This document shows positions 58,492 to 58,836 of a DNA stretch of 64,000 bases, piece after piece. Within the stretch, counting starts at the first letter, position 1. Every line of letters begins with the position of its first letter. The notes under the pieces are model-generated. The model saw only the letters and a list, made by a program, of their open reading frames with translations. It did not search any database and was not told where the DNA came from. This DNA is from Escherichia coli (GTDB taxonomy: Bacteria; Pseudomonadota; Gammaproteobacteria; Enterobacterales; Enterobacteriaceae). A program made the position numbers and the translations under genes. The stretch lies in the NCBI RefSeq assembly GCF_030013595.1, contig NZ_CP122768.1; one strand, written 5' to 3'.

Positions 58492-58836
58492 TCAACGAGG
58501 TTTTCTGGCTTTTTGTCGGTCATTCAGCACCATTAGCCGGGTCTCTGCCTCTTTCTGTTCCTGTGGAGTCACTTTCCCGCACGGCTGCCCCTTCAGGTCG
58601 TAACGGGCGCCGCCAGCCATTAACGCACGGTAATAGCGCGGAGACTGCACATAAGACGCTACTGCCGCGCGTAATGCACCTGCGCCAAACGCCAGTTCTC
58701 TGATGGCGATATCCTGTATCAGGTCGTTAGGTATCTCAACTTTAAGCGGTTGGATTTTTTCCCGGTTGAATAACTCAGGCCAGTGTTCCACAAGACGATT
58801 AATACGCTTACGGTTTTTACGCTGGCGTTTTGTCAT
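58492..58836 (-). CDS. FinO/ProQ-family RNA-binding protein (small island-encoded version)
   Basis: 114 aa; LVEHWPELFNREKIQPLKVEIPNDLIQDIAIRELAFGAGALRAAVASYVQSPRYYRALMAGGARYDLKGQPCGKV parallels the ProQ N-terminal FinO domain. Confidence 0.65.
   Translation of the reverse strand: MTKRQRKNRKRINRLVEHWPELFNREKIQPLKVEIPNDLIQDIAIRELAFGAGALRAAVASYVQSPRYYRALMAGGARYDLKGQPCGKVTPQEQKEAETRLMVLNDRQKARKPR

Follow-up and report, generated by a model that had tools for sequence, protein, structure and literature searches.

A FinO-domain gene split by a five-nucleotide duplication on an Escherichia coli island: most likely a decaying orphan of a subfamily common in PICI-type satellites

The N-terminal region of FinO, the prototype of the FinO-domain proteins, contributes to RNA binding and duplexing. 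FinO is encoded at the end of the tra operon of a conjugative plasmid, and couples a basic N-terminal extension to its FinO domain. ProQ, the product of a core-genome gene, has instead a linker and a C-terminal Tudor-like domain, while NMB1681 of N. meningitidis and Lpp1663 of L. pneumophila are naturally single-domain proteins. Two further plasmid-encoded FinO-domain proteins, FopA and PcnR, repress replication of their own replicons via antisense RNA (PMC9977716). How the domain deals with RNA is known from two systems: the crystal structure of Legionella RocC with its RNA, RocR, shows the domain reading a terminator hairpin together with its 3' nucleotide, by way of conserved motifs (PMC9674577), and in ProQ substitutions of K35, R58, Y70, R80 or D82 reduce or abolish RNA binding (PMC7192607).

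The gene considered here lies on an island in a stretch of E. coli DNA 64,000 nucleotides long (the window), of which it is the one FinO-family locus. An initial annotation had placed a 114-aa ORF at 58492-58836, convergent to a cluster of YagK-family and AlpA genes, and its coordinates are exact: the ORF, on the minus strand, has 114 codons and an ATG start, and its stop codon is 18 nt from that of the nearest converging gene. The run of plus-strand genes that converges on it consists of a YagK/YfjJ-like gene (55978-56544), a hypothetical gene (56761-57366), AlpA (57435-57668; Pfam Phage_AlpA, 2e-10) and a 182-aa gene of the UCP030791 family (57925-58473; PF27752 UCP030791 is recorded on its homologues in loci L008-L014). 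This last gene is the constant convergent partner of island-type FinO genes, and the pairing is kept in L003, L004, L005, L030 and L031. Several complete E. coli genomes match the region at 100% identity; in one of them (NZ_CP013025.1) PGAP labels the 114-aa ORF "ProQ/FINO family protein" (WP_000166947.1) and the ORF directly upstream "hypothetical protein"; a ProQ/FINO family protein was already listed, by annotation only, in a 2018 survey of STEC pheU/pheV/selC insertions (PMC6174562).

By fold and by sequence the 114-aa ORF is a member of the FinO/ProQ superfamily. Residues 8-112 match positions 4-107 of the 109-position Pfam profile PF04352 (ProQ/FINO) with an E-value of 9.4e-23 and a score of 80.7 bits against a gathering score of 27, which puts the match far beyond chance. 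A phmmer search of PDB sequences returns FinO-domain proteins only (the ProQ NTD 5nb9, NMB1681, FinO 1dvo, RocC and Lpp1663), ProQ 5nb9 being the best match among solved structures (E 4.1e-10), and a profile built from 98 diverse homologues retrieves the same seven FinO-domain chains (E 4.6e-32 to 1e-20) and nothing else. The AlphaFold model made with a 98-sequence alignment (pLDDT 93.7, pTM 0.80) has helices at residues 3-18, 35-46, 52-63, 66-74 and 91-111 and strands at 77-79 and 85-88, that is, the helical core and beta-hairpin followed by a long helix that define a FinO fold. Foldseek places FinO 1dvo first among PDB structures (TM 0.80, rmsd 1.7 A over 100 columns, 28% identity), then RocC, NMB1681, Lpp1663 and ProQ; the top 27 matches are all FinO-domain structures, with noise below. 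The FinO-domain-like region noted in the initial annotation is thus borne out by Pfam, phmmer, the family profile, AlphaFold and Foldseek alike; the support for a FinO fold that it had proposed to look for by profile or structure search is there.

The structural likenesses are graded. The Legionella RocC/RocR structures (7rgt, 7rgu) superpose on the model with TM 0.72-0.78, and the elements with which RocC reads a terminator (beta-hairpin plus helix, and the N-cap; PMC9674577) have their counterparts in strands 77-79 and 85-88 and helix 91-111; unlike RocC, the window ORF has no long C-terminal extension, no RocR-like sRNA and no link to competence. NMB1681 (3mw6) and Lpp1663 (6s10), at TM 0.63-0.69, are similar in size and likewise have a single domain. 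With ProQ (5nb9) the window ORF shares the RNA-contact residues: in a pairwise alignment K32, R56, R67, Y68, R78 and D80 correspond to ProQ K35, R58, R69, Y70, R80 and D82. Y68 is invariant across the 98 homologues and present in the window protein, which also keeps every one of P20, F23, P30, R78, G83 and A97, all conserved in at least 90% of them. From this fold and these residues we infer that the protein may bind RNA, terminator hairpins in particular.

None of this makes the protein a FinO or a ProQ in the narrow sense. Against the NCBIfam FinO model (NF010317) the window ORF scores 53.9 bits and the full-length relative P0012 63.3 bits, the cutoff being 136, so that the window ORF falls below FinO sensu stricto; against the ProQ equivalog model (NF003434) the window ORF scores 49.4 bits, the cutoff being 127, over positions 6-114 of 205 only. 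The 114-aa ORF has no linker like that of ProQ, and a C-terminal domain is absent from it and from its full-length relatives.

Is it, then, one of nature's minimal FinO-domain proteins, as the initial annotation took it to be? Alignment with its relatives says otherwise: the 114-aa ORF makes up the last two-thirds of a gene of about 171 codons (58492-59006, minus strand), the 3' portion with the complete FinO/ProQ domain, and the gene is split by a 5-nt duplication. The front portion is the 57-aa "hypothetical" ORF (58833-59006, minus strand), which holds the gene's basic N-terminal extension. Its sequence, MVTLTINRKPQGIFSKSPATPLQDKT..., is that of the N-termini of the 159-171-aa relatives P0003, P0011, P0012 and P0015; it is in frame with the relatives down to about 58868 and out of frame beyond. 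In the close homologues of 165-185 aa the N-terminus reads MVTLTINRKPQGIFSKSPATPLQDKT...KQKPADKTPWRH-MTKRQRKNRKR, which is the 57-aa ORF of the window followed directly by the 114-aa ORF, and in tblastn residues 1-76 of P0012 map to window positions 59006-58788. In DNA alignments the lesion shows as CTGCT duplicated in tandem on the gene strand (minus) at 58858-58867, where the plus strand reads AGCAGAGCAG. The duplication is common to the window and L008 (allele P0009) and is missing from the intact alleles L003, L005, L006 and L007. As a result of the split, the TGA stop of the 57-aa ORF overlaps the ATG of the 114-aa ORF, in ATGA at 58833-58836.

The long form is ancestral, since relatives do not conserve a Met at the internal start (the position is Ile in P0023 and Leu in P0073), and the 114-aa protein is small because a gene of about 171 codons has been frameshifted. 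Close homologues are mostly 165-185 aa long (74 of 120 have at least 160 aa), and their N-terminal extension is conserved across E. coli, Salmonella and Citrobacter. A single domain is, accordingly, not the native and conserved state of this gene. NMB1681 and Lpp1663 are of that type; the window ORF is a truncated derivative that shows relaxed constraint. The architecture of the subfamily is instead that of FinO, as far as alignments and a model can tell: a basic, probably disordered N-terminal extension followed by a FinO domain, in about 170-186 aa. The NCBIfam FinO model aligns residues 20-165 of P0012 to FinO residues 26-173, and AlphaFold, with a shallow 14-sequence alignment and low confidence (pLDDT 54.6), predicts disorder for the N-terminal ~52 residues. 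Subfamily members and FinO are also alike in being encoded on mobile elements. The window gene departs from FinO in lying off a conjugative plasmid and away from the end of a tra operon, and in having lost the N-terminal extension to the frameshift.

Could the frameshift be an error of sequencing or assembly, the gene really being intact at about 170 aa? The lesion does lie beside a short A-run, a context that is error-prone in some technologies; it is, on the other side, a 5-nt duplication rather than a change in homopolymer length, about 316 complete genomes, each sequenced independently, share it unchanged, and both products occur on at least 1000 contigs, so that this explanation is effectively refuted and hardly deserves any credence at all. 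Programmed recoding that would restore the frame was considered and rejected by inspection: the duplication adds 5 nt, so that a rescue would need a +1 or -2 shift, to which the adjacent A6 run is unsuited.

The split is neither rare nor unique. A 75-nt probe spanning the CTGCT lesion finds about 316 of 5426 complete E. coli genomes, from varied hosts, at 99% identity or better, and the exact 57-aa product and the exact 114-aa product are each present on at least 1000 contigs. In L004 and L009-L014 a separate event, the loss of 2 nt immediately 5' of the ATG at which the 114-aa ORF starts, generates a 63-aa and a 114-aa ORF; L004 has an additional frameshift, and PGAP labels L004 and L030 "frameshifted". 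The wide distribution of the split allele (at least 1000 contigs, about 316 complete genomes) is a counterpoint to decay, as are the FinO-domain ORF's having stayed open in two independent split lineages and the intactness of all the key RNA-contact residues in the window protein. For the spread of the lesion itself, hitch-hiking of a dead gene on its island is one compatible account; a truncated form that is tolerated or useful is another.

The second of these accounts can be put more sharply: the truncated domain would be tolerated, or even advantageous, and would work in trans, its targets being RNAs with terminators from other loci (candidates are the C4 or IsrK RNAs of co-resident PICI satellites, or the host's ProQ ligands). 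Such a role would be in keeping with the breadth of the allele's distribution, with the placement of two independent lesions just upstream of one and the same internal ATG with the domain ORF left open, and with the AUGA overlap, which is compatible with translational coupling; satellites with intact paralogues also carry C4 and IsrK RNAs, and the N-terminal extensions of FinO-domain proteins have been suggested to guard the binding site (PMC9977716). The same review remarks that chromosomally integrated FinO/ProQ genes "likely suffered erosion"; its two remarks, on erosion and on guarding, fit decay and an unguarded domain acting in trans alike.

Other evidence tells against action in trans, beginning with the start site. 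The internal ATG is preceded by a weak Shine-Dalgarno sequence (GTGGCGGCAT-ATG). Ascertainment bias is also likely, in that frameshifts elsewhere in the gene leave no callable 114-aa ORF. Furthermore, in the FinO prototype it is just the missing N-terminal region that contributes to binding and duplexing of RNA.

The remaining evidence comes from the rates and sites of substitution. Over the 108 aligned codons of the FinO domain, intact alleles have dN/dS ratios of 0.09-0.20 (0.12 for the island-type pair L003/L005) and are under purifying selection. Between the window and L008, both with the CTGCT duplication, there are 9 nonsynonymous and 2 synonymous changes, for a dN/dS of 1.4; 9 or more nonsynonymous changes out of 11 would arise with a probability of 0.0012 at an omega of 0.15 and of 0.50 under neutrality. 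The replacements in the window protein include P28I, K29Q, G34E, D37N and E88K, at positions that are 93-96% conserved in the 74 full-length relatives. G34 aligns with ProQ G37, and the ProQ substitution G37V was isolated by a screen for lost RNA binding (PMC7192607). In the other split alleles R67C (L008, L011 and L012) and R56H (L009-L014) fall at the equivalents of ProQ R69 and R58. Alleles evidently recombine: P0003 has the window's Q29 and E34 together with an unsplit N-terminus. The evidence for relaxed constraint on the split 114-aa ORF is good, yet not conclusive, because it comes from 11 substitutions in one pair of recombining alleles. The near-neutral ratio after the split and the replacement of conserved surface positions, the ProQ G37 equivalent among them, leave action of the truncated domain in trans rather unlikely; taken together with the loss of the extension, they make the 114-aa ORF most likely a decaying orphan.

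What of an RNA partner? The initial annotation suggested that a cognate sRNA might be encoded nearby, for example in what it described as the ORF-poor stretch 58840-59850. That stretch, however, begins with the 57-aa ORF of the same gene, on the minus strand, and consists for the most part of gene debris. Upstream of the split gene comes a conserved 5' flank (59007-59177, minus strand), presumed to hold its 5' UTR and promoter region, at the edge of the part of the island that is conserved as a module. Roughly 680 genomes carry the block 59050-59177, with about 92% conservation; in the loci inspected, an island-type FinO gene follows immediately downstream of this block, with variable cargo (LacI/PTS, H-NS, Rpn or IS1) on its other side. 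The flank shows no unusual folding: its z-scores of -0.36 and -0.45 are no better than those of shuffles. An ORF at 59117-59473 (plus strand), called a "hypothetical protein" by PGAP, is probably not a gene; it was rejected as one because it has no family match, because a stop codon interrupts its frame in L003 (97% identical), and because in other loci it is cut off at module boundaries. At 59489-59729 (plus strand) lies a decayed pseudogene of the Rpn nuclease family, detected both by tblastn with the intact Rpn of L005 (E 7e-19, 57% identity, in-frame stops) and as a DNA match of about 76-78% to Rpn genes. It retains an N-terminal scrap and residues ~119-175, with residues ~17-118 deleted. 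In L005 the intact Rpn gene stands upstream of, and divergent from, an intact FinO-like gene. The interval 59717-59858 matches unannotated sequence elsewhere in E. coli.

Within this stretch no evidence of a cognate sRNA was found. No Rfam family matches the window at gathering thresholds, and at E<=10 positions 57000-61000 yield noise only. The scan for promoters and terminators that had been recommended for 58840-59850 was run over 57300-60600, where sites of each kind number 5 against 3.3 expected, which is the chance level; the only terminator-like site ahead of the gene, at 59106-59090 on the minus strand, falls within the region that folds no better than shuffles. A FinP-like antisense RNA or a traJ target beside the gene was likewise not found by Rfam, by the promoter and terminator scan or by folding.

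One structure does stand out, at the convergent junction. A near-perfect hairpin at 58446-58481, overlapping the stop codon of the UCP030791-family gene, has folding z-scores of -2.29 on the plus strand and -2.47 on the minus strand. It is kept in close alleles, in which a C-to-U change preserves G-U pairing, and the diverged L005 has a different hairpin at the junction position. It is probably a bidirectional 3'-end structure serving both mRNAs, and it is the type of element that a FinO domain could bind.

These findings bear on the function that the initial annotation had in mind, namely a naturally minimal FinO-domain chaperone, functional as it stands, acting on an antisense RNA or 3' UTR partner encoded in cis nearby, for example in 58840-59850. 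The completeness of the fold, the presence of the RNA-contact residues, the stable hairpin at the convergent junction and the precedent of single-domain FinO proteins (NMB1681, Lpp1663) are what such a proposal would draw on. It has to contend with a small size that traces to a frameshift in a gene of about 171 codons, with a dN/dS of about 1.4 within the split lineage, and with a neighbouring stretch that resolves into the 5' part of the gene, its flank, an Rpn pseudogene and a non-conserved ORF, in which Rfam matches are lacking, promoter- and terminator-like sites number 5 each for 3.3 expected, and the flank's folding z-scores are about -0.4. We regard it as very improbable.

The relatives of the gene are to be found in two settings. 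Island-type loci repeat the module of the window: YagK/Gp2, a hypothetical gene, AlpA and UCP030791, with the FinO gene convergent. Diverged intact FinO-like genes are in compact integrative elements located by tRNA or other att sites, in the order int, AlpA/HTH, AntA/Bro-N, (Icd-like), DUF4222, primase, SSB, FinO-like gene, and PerC or a hypothetical gene. The primase is of the DUF927, D5_N or AAA_25 type, and past the PerC or hypothetical gene come capsid, portal and terminase genes (L024) or defence cargo (L025, L029). Such a layout is that of the Gram-negative PICI satellites (PMC10111431). The window copy and the satellite-associated members, which are 64-92% identical, belong to the same subfamily; for allele P0120 alone the collection lists 4005 blocks, and a scan of species-wide contigs with narrow patterns added one locus, in E. 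albertii.

The position of the satellite genes invites comparison with FopA and PcnR, with which the subfamily shares, in described role and gene position, the character of element-encoded FinO-domain proteins tied to replication. Presence beside primase and SSB genes is the constant of the satellite loci, and PICI origins map next to primase/SSB (PMC10111431); intact members thus resemble FopA and PcnR in their placement immediately downstream of the satellite primase and SSB genes, near the presumed origin. They differ from these in that no antisense RNA was found in the intergenic regions between primase and FinO-like genes. Those regions were also searched for a conserved RNA or terminator and discarded as a source of one: they are rich in AT, resemble iterons and have no sequence in common between different loci. 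The window copy, for its part, stands outside any replication module; tblastn found no satellite remnants (SSB, PerC, primase) in the stretch upstream of it, and there are none nearby.

Candidate RNAs of another kind are encoded at a distance. Of the 11 satellite loci sampled, 6 encode the Rfam C4 antisense RNA and/or IsrK, with scores of 60-80 bits where the gathering scores are 45 and 50; the distance to the FinO-like gene, which lies downstream, is about 3.6-5 kb. An int-alpA RNA is present as well in one locus. The C4 and IsrK profiles detect relatives of the P4 CI immunity RNA and of its seqA target in PICIs, in a study that makes no mention of ProQ/FinO (PMC10111431). Neither C4 nor IsrK is present in the other 5 satellites (among them L018, L021, L022 and L029), even at E<=0.05, or in any island-type locus or the window. 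With C4/IsrK in 6 of 11 satellites only, the association with the FinO-like gene is partial, and absence from the other 5 and from all island-type loci rules these RNAs out as a universal partner of the subfamily. A literature search for a ProQ/FinO-like regulator connected with satellites turned up one annotation-level remark, on episomal Vibrio satellites (PMC13230959).

A more ambitious proposal would make the subfamily the protein half of a FinOP-like riboregulatory system of PICIs, with the split island allele still acting in trans. The RNA half might be a P4-type C4/CI immunity RNA with its IsrK/seqA-like target, or else a replication-control RNA, and the split allele would amount to an "unguarded" FinO domain acting on the RNAs of co-resident satellites or on host ProQ ligands. 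This combination we judge improbable.

The likeliest account, which we hold with some confidence and short of certainty, is that the 114-aa ORF of the window is the FinO-domain piece of a split mobile-element gene, most likely a decaying orphan without a local RNA partner. The gene, of about 171 codons (58492-59006, minus strand), would belong to an uncharacterised enterobacterial subfamily of FinO-domain proteins whose intact members reside in the replication modules of PICI-type satellites or in the YagK-AlpA-UCP030791 module of chromosomal islands. By analogy with FinO, FopA, PcnR and RocC, the ancestral role of the subfamily may have been that of an element-specific RNA chaperone, with a terminator-bearing regulatory RNA of its own satellite or island as putative ligand; none appears to be encoded beside the window gene. 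The CTGCT duplication has divided the gene into its 57-aa and 114-aa ORFs, the latter keeping the whole fold and the residues that in ProQ read terminator hairpins and RNA 3' ends (PMC7192607). Termination followed by reinitiation at the AUGA overlap is a possible route to translation of the 114-aa ORF, so that some free FinO domain might be produced by translational coupling; its residual activity would be at most the non-specific binding of terminator hairpins.

For the window itself the importance of all this is limited, its copy being ordinary and already annotated. Two corrections follow. What is annotated as a 57-aa "hypothetical protein" and as a 114-aa "ProQ/FINO family protein" comes from a single broken gene, so that the window protein does not belong among the natural minimal FinO proteins; and the "ORF-poor" stretch consists largely of gene debris, with no sign of an sRNA locus in the Rfam, motif and folding scans. 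What reaches beyond the window is a lead and not a result: intact members of the subfamily are very common in the replication modules of PICI-type satellites of E. coli and Salmonella, and a literature search for functional studies of this FinO-like subfamily of satellites gave annotation-level mentions only. If it is true that these proteins chaperone satellite RNAs, then FinO-type riboregulation would extend from plasmids to phage satellites.

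The intact FinO-like gene of PICI-type satellites shares 4-11 nt with the beginning of a PerC-family regulator gene (loci L015, 8812-9626; L016, 10604-11397; L025, 6001-6793; L029, 6001-6818); this overlap suggests that the two genes are translationally coupled. In satellites of the P0120 type (named for an allele of the FinO-like protein), a hypothetical gene of 120-138 aa replaces the PerC-family gene. Tandem C4 antisense and IsrK-like RNAs are found beside the Icd/Ash/Bro genes of six satellites with intact FinO-like genes, L015 (13258-13443), L016 (6710-6898), L017, L024, L025 (which has two such pairs) and L026; L015 also has an int-alpA RNA (16632-16699).

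Upstream of the window's own FinO-like gene lies the decayed pseudogene of an Rpn-family recombination-promoting nuclease (59489-59729, + strand), of which an N-terminal scrap and residues ~119-175 remain, with stop codons and an internal deletion; in the island-type locus L005, the same position is held by an intact Rpn gene. A short unannotated segment at 59717-59858, directly upstream of the ECs1377-family gene, matches places in the chromosomes of other E. coli that likewise lack annotation, at 76-91% identity. Farther along the island, a MobI(A/C)-type gene (62635-63021, + strand; Pfam MobI, 9.3e-28) adjoins a RhuM gene and an IS3-family pseudogene, a combination hinting that this portion of the island originated in an element mobilisable by IncA/C plasmids.

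Relative to the reference strain, the ilvN/uhpA interval contains an insertion of ~3.3 kb (1441-4782) with two long ORFs (1693-3000, 435 aa; 3233-4681, 482 aa), neither of which has a match in Pfam, NCBIfam or PADLOC. A 19-kb segment (15900-34900), missing from E. coli 2009C-3133, matches the air/eaeX-eilA-eip locus of other E. coli, which contains T3SS needle-tip and translocon genes, at an identity of only 94.7%. An MFS transporter gene (37227-38411, - strand) separates yicL from the point where the shared island begins, at a site where the sequence of the reference strain differs.

Compared with 2009C-3133, the chromosomal backbone (1-37145) is only 92-97.6% identical, whereas the island part (39035-64000) is 99.97% identical. 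This disparity suggests that the island has passed recently between diverged Escherichia lineages, and that its host here belongs to an atypical lineage.
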